From positions 124,001 through 170,182 of the forward strand of contig MU005992.1 in assembly GCA_010093745.1 (NCBI GenBank): a stretch of 46,182 bases of DNA, written 5' to 3'. Of this stretch, positions 11,385-46,182 are shown piece after piece; the stretch's first letter is position 1, and every line of letters begins with the position of its first letter. A model generated the notes under the pieces. It had not been told where the DNA came from. It did not search any database and was given only the letters and a program-made list of their open reading frames with translations. A program made the position numbers and the translations under genes. The DNA comes from Piedraia hortae CBS 480.64. Taxonomy: Eukaryota.

Positions 11385-11579
11385 TTTAAGGCTGAGTTAT
11401 GTCATGGTTGGTAAGGACTCCATCACACCACTTCTTTCTGTCTGGTTCTCTGGTTGTTCGATGCAGGGATGGCGAGGTGGAGCCCCGGATTCCGGCCGTC
11501 TGGGACAGCCAATCAGAATTCACCAAAGGTTTACCCACCCCTGCGCGTTTGAGTTCGCATCGCAGACCTCAAGCAAACC

Positions 11580-14390
11580 ATGTCAGGACGGAAAGACTTC
11601 CTCAGCCAGCCCGCGCCGGAGAACTATGTCGCCGGTCTCGGTCGCGGAGCCACGGGCTTCACAACGCGCTCGGATTTAGGCCCCGCGCGGGAGGGACCGA
11701 GCGAGGAACAGATCAAGGAAGTTCTTGCGAAACGCGCTGCCGCACTCGGAGCAGCTGCGCCGACGGCCTATGGGGTTAAGAAGAAGCCTGAGGAAGCGGA
11801 TGACGATCAGTTCGCGGATGCGGAGAATGAAGAGGGGCTTCTAGCCACCGGCAGTTATGATAAGGAAGATGAGGAGGCCGATCAGGTCTACCAGGCTGTT
11901 GATGAGAGGATGGATCGGAGGAGGAAAGGGAGGAGAGAGGAGAGAGAGCGGCTGGAGAGAGAACAGTATGAGAGAGACCACCCAAAGATTCAACAGCAGT
12001 TTGCTGACCTCAAGCGGTCCCTTGGGACGTTGAAGGATGAAGATTGGGCGAATATCCCAGAGGTGGGTGATTTGACGGGTAAGAATAGACGGAGCAAGCA
12101 GAATGAGAAGAAGAGATTCTATGCCGTGCCGGACTCGGTTTTGGTTGGGGCGAGGGACCAGGGACAGTTGTCTACGGAGGTACAGGACGATGGGACAGCG
12201 ACCGAGGCTGGTCGCGAACAAGCAGACGGTACAATGACCAATTTTGCGGATATCGGGAAGGCCAGAAATAGGGCCATGGAGGGACGATTGGATGCTGCTG
12301 CGCAGTTGCAGGCCGCAGGAGGCGACTCGGTGGCGGGGACCAGCACCAACATCGATCCTCGGGGTTATCTTACCAGCCTAGGCAAGAGCGAGGCCAAGGC
12401 AGCAGAGATGCAAGTGCACGATATCAAACGCACTCGGGTACTGTTCGAGTCCATTATCAAAAGCAATCCCCACCACGGTCCCGGCTGGATAGGGGCTGCG
12501 CGATTGGAAGAGTTTGCGGGTAAACCTGGTGCGGCAATGGCAGTCATCCTCCGAGGCGCAGAGCAGTGTCCCAAGGATGAAGACGTCTGGTTAGAAGCCA
12601 TGCGTCTGCACGCCCAACATGGCAACAAACGCAACGCAAAAGTCCTCGCAGCCAAGGCCGTCCAGGCAATTGACAGGAGCGTCAATATCTGGATCGAGGC
12701 TATGAAGCTAGAGGAAAACGTTGCGGCAAGGAAACGAGTGCTGCGCAAAGCCCTCGACCATATCCCGCAGTCGGTGACGCTGTGGAAAGAAGCCGTTAAA
12801 CTCGAAGATGTCGAAAGCGCAAAGTTGATGCTTGCAAAGGCTACTGAAATGATTCCACTGTCAGTCGAGCTCTGGCTGGCTTTGGCTCGACTGGAAACAT
12901 CGGAAAAGGCACAGGTGGTGCTTAACAAAGCTCGCAAAGCGATCCCAACGTCTTATGAGATTTGGATCGCTGCAGCACGTTTGCAGGAGCAGACGGGAGC
13001 TACAGATATGGTGTTCAAGATCATGGCTCGCGCTGTTAATGCCCTCGCCAAAGAGTCTGCAATGCTGAAGCATGAGGAATGGATCGCTCAGGCGGAAATC
13101 TGCGAGGAGGAGGGAGCTGACGTGACGTGTCAGGCTATCATATTTGAGACGCTGGGATGGGGATTGGACGAGAGCGATGACCGTAAGCAAATCTGGCTGC
13201 ATGATGCCAGAGCCAGTATCAATCGAGGCAGGTACAAAACGGCAAAAGCAATGTATGCTCATGCAGCACGCTCTCTACCCGCCGACAGCAGCATCTGGCT
13301 TGCCGCGACAGAGTTGGAGAGACAGCACGGCTCAAAGGAGGCTCTTTGGGCACTGCTTGAGCAAGCAGTTCAGAGTTGTCCAAACTCCGAGGTACTCTGG
13401 CTCCAGCTTGCTCGTGAGAAATGGCAAGGTGGACAGATTGATGAGGCGCGCAAAGTGCTCGGCCTCGCGTTCCAGCAGAACCCGGGCAACGAAGACATTT
13501 GGCTGTCCGCTGTCAAGCTTGAGGCTGACAATGGAGAAGTGGAGAAGGCTCGGGAACTGCTGGCAGAGGCACGTTCTGAGGCGGGAACAGAAAGAATTTG
13601 GATAAAGTCGGTGGCTTTTGAACGACAAATTAAAGACGGATCGGACGAGGCACTGGCACTCGCCAACGAAGGTCTACAGCTGTACCCCAAAGCGGCCAAA
13701 TTGTGGATGATGAAGGGCCAGATCTACGAGGCACGCAACATGCTCCCACAGGCACGCGATGCTTACAGTATGGGTACAACGAAATGTCCCCGAAGCGTGC
13801 CGTTATGGTTACTGGCGAGTCGATTGGAAGAACGAGCTGGAACAGCTATAAAGGCTCGCTCAATCCTTGACCGTGCTCGGTTGGCCGTCAAGCGCAATCC
13901 AGAGCTATGGACAGAGGCCGTCCGGCTCGAGATCCGGAACCAAAAGATTGCAGTGGCGAAACAAAAAATGGCGGTGGCGTTGCAGGAATGTCCGACCTCT
14001 GGACTCCTGTTGAGTGAGCGCATCTGGCAACTAGAGGAACGGACCCAACGTAAGCCGCGAATCCACGAGGCCATCAAGACAGTGGACACGGACCCAATCC
14101 TCTTCGTCACAGCCGCACGCATCTTTTGGGGTGAACGCAAACTGGACAGGGCCGATACCTGGTTCCAAAAGGCCGCCGTGCTGGACCCGGATCAGGGAGA
14201 CACGTGGGCTTGGTGGTACAGGTTTGCTCTACAGCATGGCACAGCAGAAAAGCGAGAGGAATTGATATCCAAATGCGTCGCAAACGAGCCGCGGCATGGA
14301 GAGGTCTGGCAGCGGGTGCGCAAGGCACCGGAGAATTCACATCTCAATACCGAACAGGTGTTGGCCAAGGTGGCTGGAGAGTTGGGATAG
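11580..14390 (+). CDS. PRP6: U5/tri-snRNP splicing factor Prp6 (HAT/TPR repeats)
   Basis: DFLSQPAPENYVAGLGRGATGFTTRSDLGPAR N-terminus, PKIQQQFADLKRSL, many HAT repeats, C-terminal EPRHGEVWQ. Confidence 0.96.
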   Translation: MSGRKDFLSQPAPENYVAGLGRGATGFTTRSDLGPAREGPSEEQIKEVLAKRAAALGAAAPTAYGVKKKPEEADDDQFADAENEEGLLATGSYDKEDEEADQVYQAVDERMDRRRKGRREERERLEREQYERDHPKIQQQFADLKRSLGTLKDEDWANIPEVGDLTGKNRRSKQNEKKRFYAVPDSVLVGARDQGQLSTEVQDDGTATEAGREQADGTMTNFADIGKARNRAMEGRLDAAAQLQAAGGDSVAGTSTNIDPRGYLTSLGKSEAKAAEMQVHDIKRTRVLFESIIKSNPHHGPGWIGAARLEEFAGKPGAAMAVILRGAEQCPKDEDVWLEAMRLHAQHGNKRNAKVLAAKAVQAIDRSVNIWIEAMKLEENVAARKRVLRKALDHIPQSVTLWKEAVKLEDVESAKLMLAKATEMIPLSVELWLALARLETSEKAQVVLNKARKAIPTSYEIWIAAARLQEQTGATDMVFKIMARAVNALAKESAMLKHEEWIAQAEICEEEGADVTCQAIIFETLGWGLDESDDRKQIWLHDARASINRGRYKTAKAMYAHAARSLPADSSIWLAATELERQHGSKEALWALLEQAVQSCPNSEVLWLQLAREKWQGGQIDEARKVLGLAFQQNPGNEDIWLSAVKLEADNGEVEKARELLAEARSEAGTERIWIKSVAFERQIKDGSDEALALANEGLQLYPKAAKLWMMKGQIYEARNMLPQARDAYSMGTTKCPRSVPLWLLASRLEERAGTAIKARSILDRARLAVKRNPELWTEAVRLEIRNQKIAVAKQKMAVALQECPTSGLLLSERIWQLEERTQRKPRIHEAIKTVDTDPILFVTAARIFWGERKLDRADTWFQKAAVLDPDQGDTWAWWYRFALQHGTAEKREELISKCVANEPRHGEVWQRVRKAPENSHLNTEQVLAKVAGELG

Positions 14391-38838: not shown

Positions 38839-39322
38839 TGCTGTAAACTGAGCAAGAGTTCTCTCTGGAGCGGGGGCGCGTTGATTACCTTTTGCAGTTG
38901 TAGACGCTTGTCGTTGACTTTGACGTGGTTTGCTGGACAGCTGCCTCGGGTATGCCTGGCCCGTGCACCCAACAACTGATCCAAATCCTCGCCTAATACT
39001 TCGAAGGTACTACAATTGCTCGTGGATTCTACAGATTAAAGAATGTCTACAACCATAATACTAGCTCTCTACTCAATCTAACCCGCTTCTAGTAAGAGGA
39101 CTCCACGTATCGATGGACTCGCGTAGAGAAACACCCTTGGTTGGCAGGACATGATCTTGTAATACGTGAGTCTGCCAAGCCAACAGGCAGCGAAAGGCGT
39201 GAGAAAGATATGGCGGACACGAAGACGCTTTGGAGTTGACAAAAGTTCCCCCCCCCCCTTTACGTCATAGCAAGAATTAACGATCGCCCCGCCATGCTGT
39301 CCAGACAAAAGACAATATCAAG

Positions 39323-40900
39323 ATGGCCACAATTCCACCTCGACGACGGCCGAGCCGTCGTGGCTCCATGGCAGATATGCCCAAGAGTCTTTTGCAGCAG
39401 ATCCAGACGTTGGAGAAGGAGTTCATCGTTGGGACGGCCAAGCTGAAGGAAATTACCGAGCACTTTGTAGCTGAGCTGACCAAAGGACTGTCCAAGGAAG
39501 GTGGCAATATACCAATGAATCCAACGTGGTGCATGGGGTTCCCGACAGGCGAGGAGACAGGCAAGTATCTCGCCCTGGATATGGGCGGAACCAATCTCCG
39601 AGTGTGTGAAGTCACCCTTCTCGAAGGTAGTGGCGAGTTTGACATCACTCAAAGCAAATACAAGCTCCCGGAAGAGCTCAAAACGGGCAATGCTGAGGAC
39701 CTTTGGGGGTATATTGCGGACTGCCTCGAACAGTTTATGGAATATCACCACGGTGGTGAACAGTTTTTGCATATGCCGTTGGGTTTCACGTTTTCGTATC
39801 CCGTCACTCAGCTATACATCAATCACGGCGTCCTTCAGCGCTGGACCAAGGGCTTTGATATTGATGGCGTTGAGGGCCACAATGTTGTCCTGCCCTTTGA
39901 AGCTGCGTTGAAAAGCCGCGGGCTGCCAATCAAGTTGACAGCGCTGATTAATGACACAACTGGAACCCTTATTGCTAGCAACTACACGGATCCGGAGATG
40001 AAGATGGGGTGTATCTTTGGCACGGGCTGCAACGCGGCCTACATGGAGACTTGCGGTAACATTCCCAAGCTCAGTGATATGAAGCTGGACCCTAACCAGG
40101 AGATTGCTATCAATTGTGAGTGGGGGGCGTTTGACAATGAGCTCAAGGTCCTGCCGCGGACAAAGTATGATGTTATGATTGATCAAGACTCCCCCCGGCC
40201 TGGTCAGCAATCGTTTGAGAAAATGGTTTCAGGCCTCTACCTCGGAGAATTGTGGCGATTGGTCCTTGTCGATTTGCACGAGAACCAGGAGTGCAACATC
40301 TTCAAAGGACAGGACATCTCGGCCCTTAAGAAGCCTTACTCGCTTGACGCTTCGTTCCTCTCGGATATCGAGAATGATCCGTTTGAGAATCTGCAGGAAA
40401 CAGATGACTTGTTTGTGCAGAAGCTAAATATCAAGGCCAACAAGCCTGAATTGGAGTTGTGTCGCAGGCTGGCCGAGCTCATTGGGACACGAAGCGCTAG
40501 GCTCAGTAGGCACTATCATTTGAAGGCAATTTTACAAAGCTAACGTCATTTAGGTGCGTGTGGAGTGGCAGCAATTTCCAAGAAAAAGGGTTACAAAACG
40601 TGTCATGTCGGTGCTGACGGGTCGGTGTTCAATAAATACCCTCACTTCAAAGCGCGCGGGGCGCAGGCATTGAAGGAGATTCTAGACTGGGAAAAGGGAC
40701 GTGATGGCAAACCACTCGGAAGAGGCAACGATCCCATTGAGATCTTGCCCGCCGAAGACGGTTCAGGTGTGGGAGCAGCGCTCATTGCCGCTCTGACGCT
40801 TAAGCGGGCCAAGGAAGGTAACGTCACTGGCATTGACAACCCCGAAGCCATGCTTCACGTCTGCAATACCACTGCCGCTGCTCCGTCGGGCCACAAGTAG
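39323..40900 (+). CDS. HXK: Hexokinase (intron 40506-40553)
   Basis: RRPSRRGSMAD N-terminus, LALDMGGTNLRV, LGFTFSYP, WTKGF, INDTTGTL, INCEWGAFD, FEKMVSGLYLGE, ARLSACGVAAI across the intron and EDGSGVGAAL. Confidence 0.96.
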
Positions 40901-41051: not shown

Positions 41052-42176
41052 TTAGTGAGCCTCATGGCCGTCCCCCATATCCAGTACAAACGGGACCACA
41101 GCACCGTCACTGTCGTTTGAGGTCTCAAGACTTCTCAGACTAGCGGGTCTACTTCGTAGGTCATCCAGCGGGAGACTAAACCAATACGAAGTATCCAATG
41201 GGTCATGGTGAGGGCGCAAAGCCGTAGGCGGCATCAACAGCTCATCCAACCTGGGACACGTTTCCGACACGGCCGTCATCGTTGTCTGCAACTGCAACGT
41301 GTTTCCCAGCTTCAAAGTCTTAAGTCGCGGCCACTGAATACGCGACGTATCCGGCAAAGCCAAGGGCGTGGGACCGGGACGATCGAGCCAGACAAAGCTC
41401 AAGGATAGAATCGTCGGCGCGAAACTGGCCAGATATCCCCTCAACGAGACGAAAAATGTATGTTTCTGCGACTCTGTGAGCGACGACTGTGGGTTACGAA
41501 CATGGAGGGTCAGATAGGTGATTCTCTGCCATATGCATGGTACACGCATGTTGTGCAAAGCCGGGGGTCCAAACGCAGAGAACCCATCCCAGCGTAGGGC
41601 GAGCACGCCCATGGCCGTTACGGCGTCCACCCGAAGCGTTTCTAGCTTCGGTAGACTGGACTCATCCAGCGCGCTGCGGATCGTGATGAGCGTGTTCTCA
41701 CACTCTCCGAACCCCAGCCAGCCTGCATCGCCTTGAACTTGGATAATGAGGCTTTCCAGCTGCTCGAACTGCTCTAACATGGCTACCCAAACTCCCCGCT
41801 GCGCACGGTCAATGTTGCTGGTGCTGCGGCGTCGGTCCTGCGAGTAGATTGATGTTGGGCTGGGTAGCGCTGCTTGACCCGCGGGGGTGCCGGAAAAGGT
41901 CATGGTGAGCTCGCGGCAACAGCCCGCGGCTGTGCGGAGCGTCCAAAGGGTTTCAGGATGTGCGACCGGGAAGTTGATGTGCACCCTCCCAAACATCTCG
42001 CAGGCGCGTAGCTTTACCAGGTGTTGAAGCGGCCATGATACACCTCGTAGAGTCCGCAGATCGACAGCGCCCAGGTACGGTAGGAGTCTATGCCGGATTT
42101 GCTGGGTCTGGTCGTAGGTTTCTGGCATGCACAAGGTATGCTCGAACAGAGAGAGTTTTTTACGACGGCGGTACAT
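41052..42176 (-). CDS. Hypothetical protein with an F-box-like N-terminus and LRR-like C-terminus
   Basis: 374-aa ATG ORF with LLPYLGAVDLRTLRGVSWPL (F-box-like) and LxxLxL segments (LPKLETLRV, WPRLKTLKL, CPRLDELL). Confidence 0.6.
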   Translation of the reverse strand: MYRRRKKLSLFEHTLCMPETYDQTQQIRHRLLPYLGAVDLRTLRGVSWPLQHLVKLRACEMFGRVHINFPVAHPETLWTLRTAAGCCRELTMTFSGTPAGQAALPSPTSIYSQDRRRSTSNIDRAQRGVWVAMLEQFEQLESLIIQVQGDAGWLGFGECENTLITIRSALDESSLPKLETLRVDAVTAMGVLALRWDGFSAFGPPALHNMRVPCIWQRITYLTLHVRNPQSSLTESQKHTFFVSLRGYLASFAPTILSLSFVWLDRPGPTPLALPDTSRIQWPRLKTLKLGNTLQLQTTMTAVSETCPRLDELLMPPTALRPHHDPLDTSYWFSLPLDDLRSRPASLRSLETSNDSDGAVVPFVLDMGDGHEAH

Positions 42177-42568
42177 TTTTGTCGCCAGTGTGCGTTGCTG
42201 CCAGTGTGTGGTGTTGTTTTGGAAGTCTCATTTTGGCCTTGAACGCGTGTTCTGAGCTCTTGTGCGAATCTGTGAGTGTTGCTGATTGTGTGCTGTAATT
42301 GTTGCAATAGGCGTGACTTGAGATGATACTTTTAGACCAGTTGTTGGCTGTTTCCGTGGGCGAAATCATTTCCATAAAACGAAGCTCGCGTGTCTAGCAT
42401 CATGTCGTGGCTGCGGTCATGTAACCTCGCATCCGGTAGTCTGGCTAGTGGCACCTTATCAGTGAAGAATGATCTGCACAGCCGTTTAAATCGGGCCAGA
42501 GGGGCCGGCGTGAACTCTGCCCCTTCGGCCGAGGAGTCTGCAATCGAGCAAATACAACAATCACCATC

Positions 42569-44135
42569 ATGGCAGCCCCAGGCGGTAAATTCTGGTCAGT
42601 ACCATGTACATACTTTTTCCATGCAGAATCCTTCGCTGACACAAAGGCAGTATGCGGGACCCTCCACCTGCGTCATCTAGAATAACATTCTCACCTTCGC
42701 TGCAACAGTCGTTCAAGATAACCTCGCGGTCAAGGCCCTGCACCATGAAAGCTTCGAGCAGTTGTGGAAGGTCAAGTGGCAGGCACTGGTATGTGTACCT
42801 CGAACTATGGAAAAGTGTGACTGATCCTTGATGCAGTGCCGCATGGGCGTGTATCCGTTCATGTTTGCCAAATATGAAGATTTCGTACCGATTGCTGATC
42901 AGTTGATAAAGGTATGTGGGAAGACGATGAAGCTAGCAGTCCTAAAAGTGAACAAGGAAGGCTTCAAAGAACCATATAAATGGAACGAGTATGCCCAGGT
43001 CTTTTGTAGGTGTTCTTCTGATGTGGAAGAGGTAGGAGCTAATACTATGTATAGTCCCAAAAGCCGAAGAATTGGTGCAGGAAGCCAATAAAGCTGAGAA
43101 AGCAGGCGAAAAAGAAAAGGCCTCGGAGTTTTACCTGCATGTAACACAAGTCAAACACTAAGCCCTCGCTGACATTTTTCCAGACGAGCGTCAGCTGTGT
43201 ATCGAATCTCACGCTTCCCAATACCACGAAGTGAGAAGCAGCGATATGCCTGGGAGCAGGGCAAAAAAGCAGCACTCAAAGGCCTGGAGCTGAAAGAGCG
43301 GCCAACAAGGGAGGTCACAATTCTTCACAAGCACGGCCTCGAGCACGAAGGCAAGGAAATCAAATTCTTCTACCATCTCCCACCCGAAGCCTCCAAAGAG
43401 AAGCCCGTACCGCTGGTCATAATCTTTACCGGCCTGGATGGTTACCGAACCGAGCTCGCAGTCTGGGTCCAAGTCTGGACAGCCAAGCAAGTAGCTGTCG
43501 TGATTCTCGAAGTTCCCGGAACGGGTGACTCGCCCGCAGATCCCAAGGATGTGAAATCGCCTGACCGTGAGTGGTCAAGCCTCTTCGACTGGATCGGTCA
43601 GCAAACCGAGATCAACCAGCGATCGATCGCCCTCTGGGGCTTTAGCACTGGGGGCTACTATGCCATCCGCATAGCACATACCCACCACGACCGTCTCGCT
43701 GGCGTTGCGGCCCTAGGCGGCGGCTGCCATTACATGTTTGCTCCGGACTGGTTGGACCAAGTTAACCATCTCGAGTATCCCTTTGACCTCGCCAATGCCC
43801 TGGCCCACAAATGGGGCTATGGAAACGACGTGGAAACCTTCAAAAAGGAAGCCATGAAGAACTTTTCCCTCGTAGAGGACAAAACACTCGACAGTCCCGA
43901 CTGCACGCGTTTGCTCCTAGTCAATGGAGAGAACGACGAAATCTTCCCCATCGACGATTATTACGAGTGCCTGTTCCACGGCAAACCAAAGGAAGTTCGC
44001 TTTGTTCATGGGAGGAAGCATATGGGTGAACCGGAAAGCTTTTCAATCGTAATCAAATGGATCTATGACCTCTTCGGACTCGAAGGTGAACCGAAAGATG
44101 TGCTTAAGCTGCTACCTTTCAAAGCCAAGTTTTAG
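42569..44135 (+). CDS. AYG1: Ayg1/Yg1-like alpha/beta hydrolase (polyketide-shortening enzyme of DHN melanin synthesis); exons 42569-42593, 42709-42788, 42837-42911, 42957-43005, 43055-43136, 43184-44135
   Basis: Spliced product MAAPGGKFFVQDNLAVKALHHESFEQLWKVKWQALCRMGVYPF...YLRASAVYRISRFP...TGLDGYRTE...WGFSTGGYYA...DEIFPIDD...HMGEP. Confidence 0.88.
42594..42708 (+). other. [D1,2] spliceosomal twin intron (internal intron 42595-42650 inside the donor of an external intron)
   Basis: G|GTCAGT...GCTGAC...GGCAG|TATGC...CAG. Only two-step removal keeps the AYG1 reading frame. Confidence 0.8.
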
Positions 44136-44181
44136 ACTGTGTGTCTGCAAAGAGGAAAAAGTACGTAGATGATTGAACGAT

Positions 44182-44484
44182 TCAGTTTCCTAGACCAGTT
44201 GCAGAATTGAGCACCTTATCGCCACCATCAACCAAATCCTTCCAGGGATCTTCAATAAAACTTGGCATAAAGTAGATATCATCACCCATTTCGTTCTGTT
44301 TCTGTTTAGGTCGTTTATCTTCTTCCATTACTTTTTGAGATTTGCTGGGAGGTGGTGTGACTTTGGCTGGAGCAGTGGAAGAGAAGTGATCGTCGGTGTA
44401 TGCGCGCTTCGTACTGGCTTTCTGCATCCCGAACGAGCCAAAGCCCATTGCTTGGGCGACGTCTATTTCCTCTGGTTCGGACAT
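44182..44484 (-). CDS. Small protein with AMGFGSFG and YFMPSFIEDPW motifs (MPLKIP/TTDN1-like C-terminus)
   Basis: 100-aa ATG ORF with two conserved-looking motifs separated by a low-complexity linker. Confidence 0.65.
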   Translation of the reverse strand: MSEPEEIDVAQAMGFGSFGMQKASTKRAYTDDHFSSTAPAKVTPPPSKSQKVMEEDKRPKQKQNEMGDDIYFMPSFIEDPWKDLVDGGDKVLNSATGLGN

Positions 44485-44923
44485 CGCTGGAAAGGAACGT
44501 TTTTCTTCGAGAGGGAGGCACTGGGAAGTGTTCTGAAGGCCTGGCGGCGATGCACACTTGCCGCTTCTGGAAAGACGATGCGCACGCGCCAGCCCAGGAT
44601 TTCCCAGTAGCACTCACACGTTGGCACCTGAAAGGGAATATCATTAGCCATCCCTTCCAGTTAAAGGGGGCGGACTGATGGTGTGAGTACTCTGAGACGT
44701 GAATGTATGTATAGTTATCTATACTGCATACATGGGAGGACGTTGTTTATGATCGTCACGTGACACATCCTTCAACTCTTTCCTGATCGCGTTAAAGTCG
44801 ATCTAATCAAGGCCATGCCAATGACTTGATATTACACTTTGCAATCCATAGCTTTTAGATACGAGAACAAGAACGCTTCAGCAACCAAACTAATGTACAG
44901 TCTCGCGAGTGTACAACTCTTGC

Positions 44924-46054
44924 TCAATTACTCGACAGTTTCTTGCTTGCAGATTGGTGTTCCAATTCGTCTGGCACGCTACTAAGGTCCAGCGAATCGT
45001 CGTCGGCATGATCATAATGAGCAACCCCGTCCAGCTCGCTGCCCGGGATCACTTGTGGGCTGGGAGATTCATCCTTATGTTCGAATTCCGGAGCATCCTC
45101 CATTGACTCTTCCCCAGCTTCCACTTCCATTTCGCCATTTGCGCTGTGGTCAGTGTGGATGTTATCTTGCTGGTCTTCAGAATCCTCCTGAATTCTTTCC
45201 ACAAGCTCTTCCAGCAGAATCTCCTGCCCTTCCTCAGGTTTTGGTGCCAGCTCCTCAAATGCCGGAGCCTCTTCCATCTCTACATCCGCTTCGGGAGCGT
45301 TCTGCACTGCCTCAAGTACCTCACCGGGCGAGGCGGCGCCTATCGTGCTCCCCCTCGGCAGAGGTGAGTGTGCAGGCATTGGAGATTTTGCCAGCAACGA
45401 GGAATGACCCGGCAGTGGCGACTTCTCGGGCGGTGAATCCGGAACCTTAAGAGCATCGTCTTTTGCGGCTTTTATAGACCTGACCATATCCTCGCTGACC
45501 TTTGCCACATTCTCAAACAGCTCTCTCCTCGTTGCCCAAATGCCTTCATACCGAGCTCCTTCAGCTTCCAGTTCCGCAATTTCCCTCTCCAGCGCTGCAA
45601 TCTCTACCCTACGCTCCTCTCTCGCCTTCAGCTTCGGATCATCCAGTATTTTTGCCGCGAGCTCGTCATAGCCCTTGCGCTGGCTTAGCACCTGCTGCGC
45701 ATCCGCTAGCTGTGCGCGAAGCGCAACCGTGCTCTCGCGTACGGAGCTGGCGGAAGAGAGGATCCTGGCTTTTTCGGCCGCATACCGCTCCCTTTCCCGC
45801 GCGTGAGAGGTCTGGATGCTCTGGATGCGAAGAATGCTGTTGTTGAAGGCGGCAAAGTCGAGAGATATCTCGGCGTAAAGCTTGTCCGGGTTGGTAGTGT
45901 CGCGCAAGAGGGCTTTGGTGAGCCGTTGGAAGGGCCGCTCCTCCACGTTCAGTAAACGCGTCGCGTGTAGCGCGTCTTCTTGAGCTTGCTCCGGGAGTGG
46001 GCCATAGTGGTAGCCATGCGTGGGGGGCAGATCGGTCATGGTGTATGGAGGCAT
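44924..46054 (-). CDS. THOC7: THO complex subunit 7 (Thoc7/Mft1-like) with an acidic tail
   Basis: EDALHATRLLNVEERPFQRLTK...LDFAAFNNSILRIQ...ERERYAAEK...RKGYDELAAKI coiled coil. The start could be 46054 or 46039. Confidence 0.78.
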   Translation of the reverse strand: MPPYTMTDLPPTHGYHYGPLPEQAQEDALHATRLLNVEERPFQRLTKALLRDTTNPDKLYAEISLDFAAFNNSILRIQSIQTSHARERERYAAEKARILSSASSVRESTVALRAQLADAQQVLSQRKGYDELAAKILDDPKLKAREERRVEIAALEREIAELEAEGARYEGIWATRRELFENVAKVSEDMVRSIKAAKDDALKVPDSPPEKSPLPGHSSLLAKSPMPAHSPLPRGSTIGAASPGEVLEAVQNAPEADVEMEEAPAFEELAPKPEEGQEILLEELVERIQEDSEDQQDNIHTDHSANGEMEVEAGEESMEDAPEFEHKDESPSPQVIPGSELDGVAHYDHADDDSLDLSSVPDELEHQSASKKLSSN

Positions 46055-46182
46055 TGTCGCGCGGTTTGAAGGTTGCGGTGGATGGGTGTAGTCACAGTGT
46101 GACCCCATGTGAAGCGGAAGGTGTATTATAATTGTGAGCAGATGTGTACCTGCATACAAATCTCTACGGAAAACTAGTTGAC

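Follow-up and report, generated by a model that had tools for sequence, protein, structure and literature searches.

[D1,2] stwintrons, a class defined by Flipphi, Fekete and colleagues, carry a canonical inner intron between G1 and U2 of the donor of an outer intron, and hundreds are already on record (PMC12403724). Pezizomycotina examples include those in lipS/AN7524 of Aspergillus nidulans, in a DHA1 antiporter gene and in the alternative oxidase gene of Helminthosporium solani (PMC12403724, PMC5639578, PMC5587772). In these cases the splicing intermediate ("splinter") is shown by RT-PCR, and the authors describe the lipS stwintron as having originated from an existing canonical intron (PMC5639578, PMC12403724). 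A further group, the "sister" [D1,2] stwintrons of Hypoxylaceae and Xylariaceae, comprises sequence-similar elements with terminal or near-terminal inverted repeats (PMC8469720, PMC12403724).

Our analysis supports, with a probability of roughly 0.87, the reading of intron 1 of an ayg1/yg1-like hydrolase gene of Piedraia hortae as a [D1,2] stwintron that arose by gain at a new intron position. The gene lies on the forward strand of the window, the whole 46,182-nucleotide stretch of P. hortae CBS 480.64 DNA that was analysed. Like the Pezizomycotina stwintrons, its first intron has a canonical inner intron between G1 and U2 of the outer donor, giving an apparent GG..AG intron; each half has its own branch element and acceptor; and excision in one step leaves a single G behind and disrupts the reading frame. 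Four of the five features of the class are present (the GG start, the inner intron, the rebuilt donor and a non-functional one-step product); the splinter belongs to the Pezizomycotina cases, whereas the P. hortae case is known from its mature junction and its sequence. The intron differs from those examples in its host, an ayg1/yg1-like hydrolase gene, and in its lineage, Teratosphaeriaceae/Piedraia; unlike lipS, the P. hortae site has no canonical intron in any relative examined.

The element shares with the sister stwintrons of Hypoxylaceae and Xylariaceae the [D1,2] type, a new intron position and a seamless insertion (TTCT^TC). In contrast to them, its folding is ordinary, and its position is common to a family-level clade, not confined to one species. 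Membership in the sister (NTIRE-type) group was rejected: inverted repeats are absent, and neither the 46-kb window nor the best 80 related loci contain a similar copy, though copies may lie elsewhere in the genome.

In the recursive splicing of long animal introns, successive canonical reactions also remove one intervening sequence, with a donor regenerated at the first ligation. Recursive sites regenerate that donor from the end of the upstream exon and serve very long introns. The P. hortae intron shares the successive canonical reactions and the donor remade at the first ligation; unlike recursive sites, it would use a single intronic G as the retained half of the donor, and each step would remove an intron of less than 60 nt. 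A literature search found no paper combining "stwintron" and "ayg1", and supplementary tables could list further host genes; in the available parts of PMC5639578, PMC5587772 and PMC9024468, no mention of ayg1 or melanin was found.

The last exon of the gene (43185-44132) matches the deposited protein P0001 (420 aa, "alpha/beta-hydrolase [Piedraia hortae CBS 480.64]") at 100% identity. P0001 matches PDB 8qd7, "Yellowish-green 1-like protein" (E 2.5e-167, residues 6-419), PDB 8qd1, "Pigment biosynthesis protein yellowish-green 1" (E 1.8e-99), and Pfam PF06500 (FrsA-like, alpha/beta-hydrolase fold; E 1.7e-13); the host gene is therefore an ayg1/yg1-like hydrolase. Homology suggests a role for the P. 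hortae protein in DHN-melanin synthesis.

Transcript evidence comes from one contig of one public run (X1), whose kind is not on record and which a program guesses to be RNA. The run contains 0.75 of the sampled words from 42400-44200. The contig, 2764 nt long at a depth of 488, aligns in six pieces with five joints across 42200-44400 and is 100% identical to the window; assembled contigs lose rare forms, and the view of transcripts that they give is that of the main form. At the 42593-to-42709 joint the contig skips 115 nt with the ends GG..AG and 0 shared letters, and the shorter side measures 79 nt. Positions 42594-42708, 115 nt that start GG, are missing from the mature message, and the resulting junction, an apparent GG-AG intron, is the one that the earlier note had predicted. 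The four other joints skip 48, 45 and 49 nt (GT..AG) and 47 nt (GC..AG), and none of the run's contigs lies in any of the five introns. When the six-exon CDS is assembled from the five joints, its translation equals P0001 exactly, and the N-terminus of that protein, MAAPGGKFF, is the consensus of 19 relatives.

Exon 1 (42569..42593, 25 nt) holds the ATG, the first eight codons and one base (MAAPGGKF, then T), as read from the sequence, the contig and the CDS. It is followed by exon 2 (42709..42788), exon 3 (42837..42911), exon 4 (42957..43005) and exon 5 (43055..43136), all set by contig joints and the CDS check, and by exon 6 (43184..44135), which encodes the alpha/beta-hydrolase core and the stop codon (sequence, P0001, Pfam and PDB). 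The contig joints also define intron 2 (42789..42836, 48 nt, GTATGT..CAG), intron 3 (42912..42956, 45 nt, GTATGT..AAG), intron 4 (43006..43054, 49 nt, GTAGGT..TAG) and intron 5 (43137..43183, 47 nt), a GC-AG intron (GCATGT..CAG). The GC donor of intron 5 is GT at the same position in L006, L018, L033, L034, L036, L039 and L061. In this comparison, which uses nine rows, GC thus looks like a change peculiar to the Piedraia lineage; a classification of all loci left 28 undecided and mislabelled the cDNA-like L002.

Within the 115 nt of intron 1, G42594 would be G1 of the split donor of the outer intron. The putative inner intron (42595..42650, 56 nt) has the donor GTCAGT (42595-42600), which departs from the GURWGY consensus at the third base, the branch element GCTGAC (42635-42640; branch A 42639, 11 nt from the 3' end), a perfect RYURAY, and the acceptor CAG (42648-42650, YAG); both consensus strings are those of the Fig. 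1 legend of PMC12403724. The remainder of the outer intron (42651..42708, 58 nt, or 59 nt with G42594) begins TATGC, which completes a rebuilt donor, GTATGC, that fits GURWGY. Its candidate branch element is CTCAC (42690-42694, 15 nt from the 3' end) or alternatively AATAAC (42682-42687), both imperfect, and its acceptor is the CAG at 42706-42708, after which the contig resumes at 42709. Only one nested parse is possible, because 42649-42651 is the sole AG-then-T within the 115 nt. The two halves (56 and 59 nt) are near the sizes of the other introns of the gene; a single 115-nt intron would be the odd one out beside introns of 45-49 nt. Sequence reading and a coordinate script agree with every position that the earlier note had given for this architecture.

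In the proposed route, under intron definition, the donor GTCAGT at 42595 would pair with the nearest branch element, GCTGAC, and the CAG ending at 42650. Excision of these 56 nt would ligate G42594 to T42651 and create the donor GTATGC; a second canonical reaction, with a branch element close to 42690 and the CAG that ends at 42708, would then remove the remaining 59 nt and join T42593 in frame to T42709. We infer this order of the two reactions; among the assembled contigs of the one run, the intermediate lacking just 42595-42650 was not seen. The coordinate script gives non-functional products for the shorter routes: one-step excision of 42595-42708 leaves one G, shifts the frame and brings a stop after 12 codons, as the earlier note had said of this route for its frameshift and stop, and excision of the inner 42595-42650 alone is also out of frame. 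The earlier note had further held that an [A2,3] order is closed, and the claim survives: were the native GTATGC..CAG (42650-42708) removed first, no AG acceptor would be left and the message would be out of frame.

Relatives were sought by scanning metagenome contigs with an alignment of 19 orthologues, which yielded 277 pattern matches, 163 of which encode a relative. The comparison set was the best 80 of these 163; 14 of the 80 do not cover the site and 66 are assessable, and several loci are identical copies, so that the independent count is lower than 66. No intron is present at the site in 63 of the 66 assessable loci (best 80 of 163), where the ATG reads straight to the HHES motif. Fifty-five of these 63 are genomic, as other introns are present; the remaining 8 of 63 lack introns altogether, and they may be either cDNA or genes without introns. 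Only L018, L033 and L036 have an intron at the site (3/66 assessable loci from the best 80 of 163). L033 and L036 are closely related, and the comparison with P. hortae therefore covers about three lineages, not four.

The nested [D1,2] parse can be made in each of L018, L033 and L036. TTCT-G-GT (TTCTGGT) is read in each, followed in the middle of the intron by a branch element and AG, then TAGGTG or TATGTG, and at the end by a second branch element and AG. L018 has an inner intron of 56 nt (GTACGC..CTGAC..CAG) and an outer intron of 52 nt (G + TAGGT..CTAAC..AAG; rebuilt donor GTAGGT); the inner and outer introns measure 76 and 67 nt in L033 and 80 and 70 nt in L036, both with the rebuilt donor GTATGT. 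The protein is conserved in these loci (KFF, then I or V, then Q), and GG..AG excision is therefore required. The look at the first intron in relatives that the earlier note had proposed finds the nested design in 3 of 66 loci, all within the Teratosphaeriaceae/Piedraia clade. Beyond the splice signals, the four introns have little in common in a MAFFT alignment, and intron 1 of the window had no match in the 80 loci (blastn, E <= 0.01); a blastn search of its 115 nt against the 46-kb window returned the self-hit and chance matches of 10-14 nt only.

Deposited models may point to a wider distribution of the arrangement. Those of Teratosphaeria destructans and Meristemomyces frigidus read MAAPG.KFC and then continue into wrong, unrelated residues, as expected of a predictor using a GT one base too late, which suggests the same GG arrangement in these two species. 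Among the deposited models, only such "KFC" ones are informative on the stwintron. Several Teratosphaeriaceae orthologues thus have wrong or truncated N-termini in public records of relatives (P0002, P0004 and others), namely the two "KFC" models and others that start at the exon 3 Met, and one orthologue is filed under Quercus suber as a 480-aa model, probably from fungal DNA in a plant assembly. Truncated public N-termini were considered as a stwintron marker and rejected: the Vermiconidia model starts at exon 3, and its sister L061 has no intron at the site. The deposited P. hortae model already encodes the right protein, and the GG..AG junction is therefore implicit in public annotation; in the literature searched, this junction was not found named as a stwintron.

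Chance was gauged with shuffled sequences. Among 20000 dinucleotide shuffles of the intron interior, the full nested design arose 13 times for the window, 34 for L018, 47 for L033 and 24 for L036; in a conservative version that shuffled the middle only and asked for a branch element and AG followed directly by TNNGY, the counts were 185, 559, 755 and 496 of 20000, respectively. A loose regular expression for the nested design, run over both strands of the window, has one match, which measures 115 nt and begins exactly at 42594, and block-shuffled windows gave a mean of 1.0 match (range 0-3; 30 shuffles, 92 kb over both strands). The nested motif alone is not rare per 92 kb; what goes beyond chance is its coincidence with RNA-defined ends and its recurrence in relatives. 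Folding energies of the four stwintrons are ordinary against shuffles (z -0.12 to +0.93), and no inverted repeats were found in 42560-42740. A hairpin or NTIRE-type element was rejected on these two observations, the lack of inverted repeats and folding no better than that of shuffles.

The same joint could also arise by one-step splicing of a truly non-canonical GG-AG intron at 42594-42708, with the inner signals accidental. Such an event would accommodate the RNA evidence, which consists of the final joint with its ends GG..AG, and the frequency of the loose nested motif, about one per shuffled 92 kb; we nevertheless consider it unlikely. A mid-intron branch element and AG followed by T(A)(T/G)G(T/C) are kept in 4/4 otherwise unalignable introns, the conservative chance rate is 0.9-3.8% per sequence, and U2-type splicing requires a U at donor position 2. 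An error in the genome sequence is still harder to credit. A single base added to the GG run would give exactly this picture, and, without that base, an ordinary GT-AG intron of 114 nt would directly follow T42593; however, the same GG, in TTCTGGT, stands in three other assemblies (L018, L033 and L036), so the G at 42594 is not a base error. The T. destructans and M. frigidus models also imply a TG before the GT that the predictor used, and an extra G would leave the mid-intron signals unexplained.

A conventional gene model has a comparably small chance of being right. It would either join the canonical donor GTAAAT (42585-42590) to 42709, which the coordinate script shows to be an in-frame route with a 124-nt intron, or use another start (ATG 42621 or a later exon), in keeping with several public models of relatives that begin at the exon 3 Met. 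The GTAAAT route bears on the earlier note's statement that the intervening sequence must begin GG: the GG start stands, on the contig and the MAAPGGKFF N-terminus, but it is not forced by the sequence alone, given that in-frame alternative. The contig has the 42593-to-42709 joint and no other there, leaving GTAAAT unused; splicing from 42585 would lose the conserved GKFF residues; the GTAAAT donor is missing from L018, L033 and L036; and ATG 42621 runs into an in-frame stop at 42678-42680. Another first exon or start, at ATG 42621 or inside exon 2, had been named in the earlier note as the readings opposed to its own, and both the contig and the conserved N-terminus contradict them. For the main transcript the conventional model is already contradicted; GTAAAT could be used in a minor isoform. 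Least probable of all is a DNA origin of the joined sequence, such as a processed retrocopy among the run's sequences, in place of splicing of a message from this locus. The unrecorded kind of run X1 leaves room for this, but the contig's complete identity with the window continues unbroken for at least 369 nt upstream of the ATG (42200-42568), and a DNA run of P. hortae should cover the five introns, which the run's contigs leave uncovered.

Phylogenies of the last exon place the [D1,2] stwintron in a single part of the family tree. The first tree had 76 rows, made up of the window, 23 named proteins and those 52 of the 80 loci that match over the full length (28 loci omitted); a second, careful tree had 45 rows. 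The four stwintron genes fall in one clade in both (support 98 in the 76-row tree and 99/97 in the 45-row tree), together with proteins of Teratosphaeria, Oleoguttula, Meristemomyces, Elasticomyces, Friedmanniomyces, Baudoinia and Vermiconidia; L036 is identical over the last exon to a Friedmanniomyces endolithicus protein. The clade also holds loci with no intron at the site, namely L061 (sister to Vermiconidia) and L006/L007 (near Baudoinia), which read TTCTTCAT. With the backbone inside the clade unresolved, the tree needs three changes, well-supported branches force two, and an AU test of four rows against 17 intron-less loci did not reject the four stwintron genes as one group (p 0.388).

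These data point to a gain within the Teratosphaeriaceae/Piedraia lineage or at its base, either as a single gain followed by exact losses or as a gain inside the clade. A route in which an inner intron invades an older intron is unsupported, because a plain intron at the site was found in 0 of the 66 assessable loci (best 80 of 163). Judging from the alignable positions, the splice signals alone appear to have been preserved since the gain, with the other intron sequence turned over. It is possible, though we hold this only tentatively and think it doubtful, that a ready-made [D1,2] unit entered an intron-less TTCT^TC in an ancestor of Teratosphaeriaceae and Piedraia, and that its six splice signals alone outlasted family-level divergence.

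Several features surround the gene. The spliced contig runs unbroken through a 340-nt spacer to a divergent minus-strand ORF (41055-42227) and reaches about 1.2 kb beyond 42200; the extension is either a long leader or an overlap of two divergent transcripts. In the case of a long leader, the ATG at 42402, upstream of the main start, begins a reading frame that overlaps that start. At the other end, the T-rich loose end of a low-depth contig lies immediately before 44040, and another contig, of high depth, begins at 44045; a convergent transcript from the minus strand (ORF 44185-44613) may have its poly(A) end here, overlapping the final ~95 nt of the ayg1-like coding sequence. The large ORFs of the window (1-42000 and 44900-46182) include neither a polyketide synthase nor any other melanin gene. 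The neighbours look like housekeeping genes: a P-type ATPase, Rad21, TFIID 18 kDa and a Prp1/Prp6-like splicing factor (11553-14387), as well as a patatin, a PX/nexin protein, a Trp/Tyr-tRNA synthetase, a hexokinase (39281-40540) and THOC7 (44927-46180, minus strand).

The [D1,2] reading has practical consequences for annotation: predictors that insist on GT-AG cannot build the 42593-to-42709 junction, and a hand check is advised when the melanin genes of black extremotolerant fungi are compared. It also offers a natural series within one clade: four diverged genes carry the stwintron, and its absence from the sister lineages L006/L007 and L061 is exact. The full turnover of the intron sequence with the nested signals kept is comparative evidence for selection on the inner signals, and the clade is a test bed for the gain of [D1,2] units as wholes. 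If the entry of a ready-made unit proved true, propagation of [D1,2] stwintrons as units, described to date in Xylariales, would have operated in Dothideomycetes too. For P. hortae itself, the host gene would need two consecutive splicing reactions in its first 140 nt and would have two ways to fail; as a side possibility, competition of the productive two-step route with the two frame-breaking routes may tune the expression of this pigment gene.
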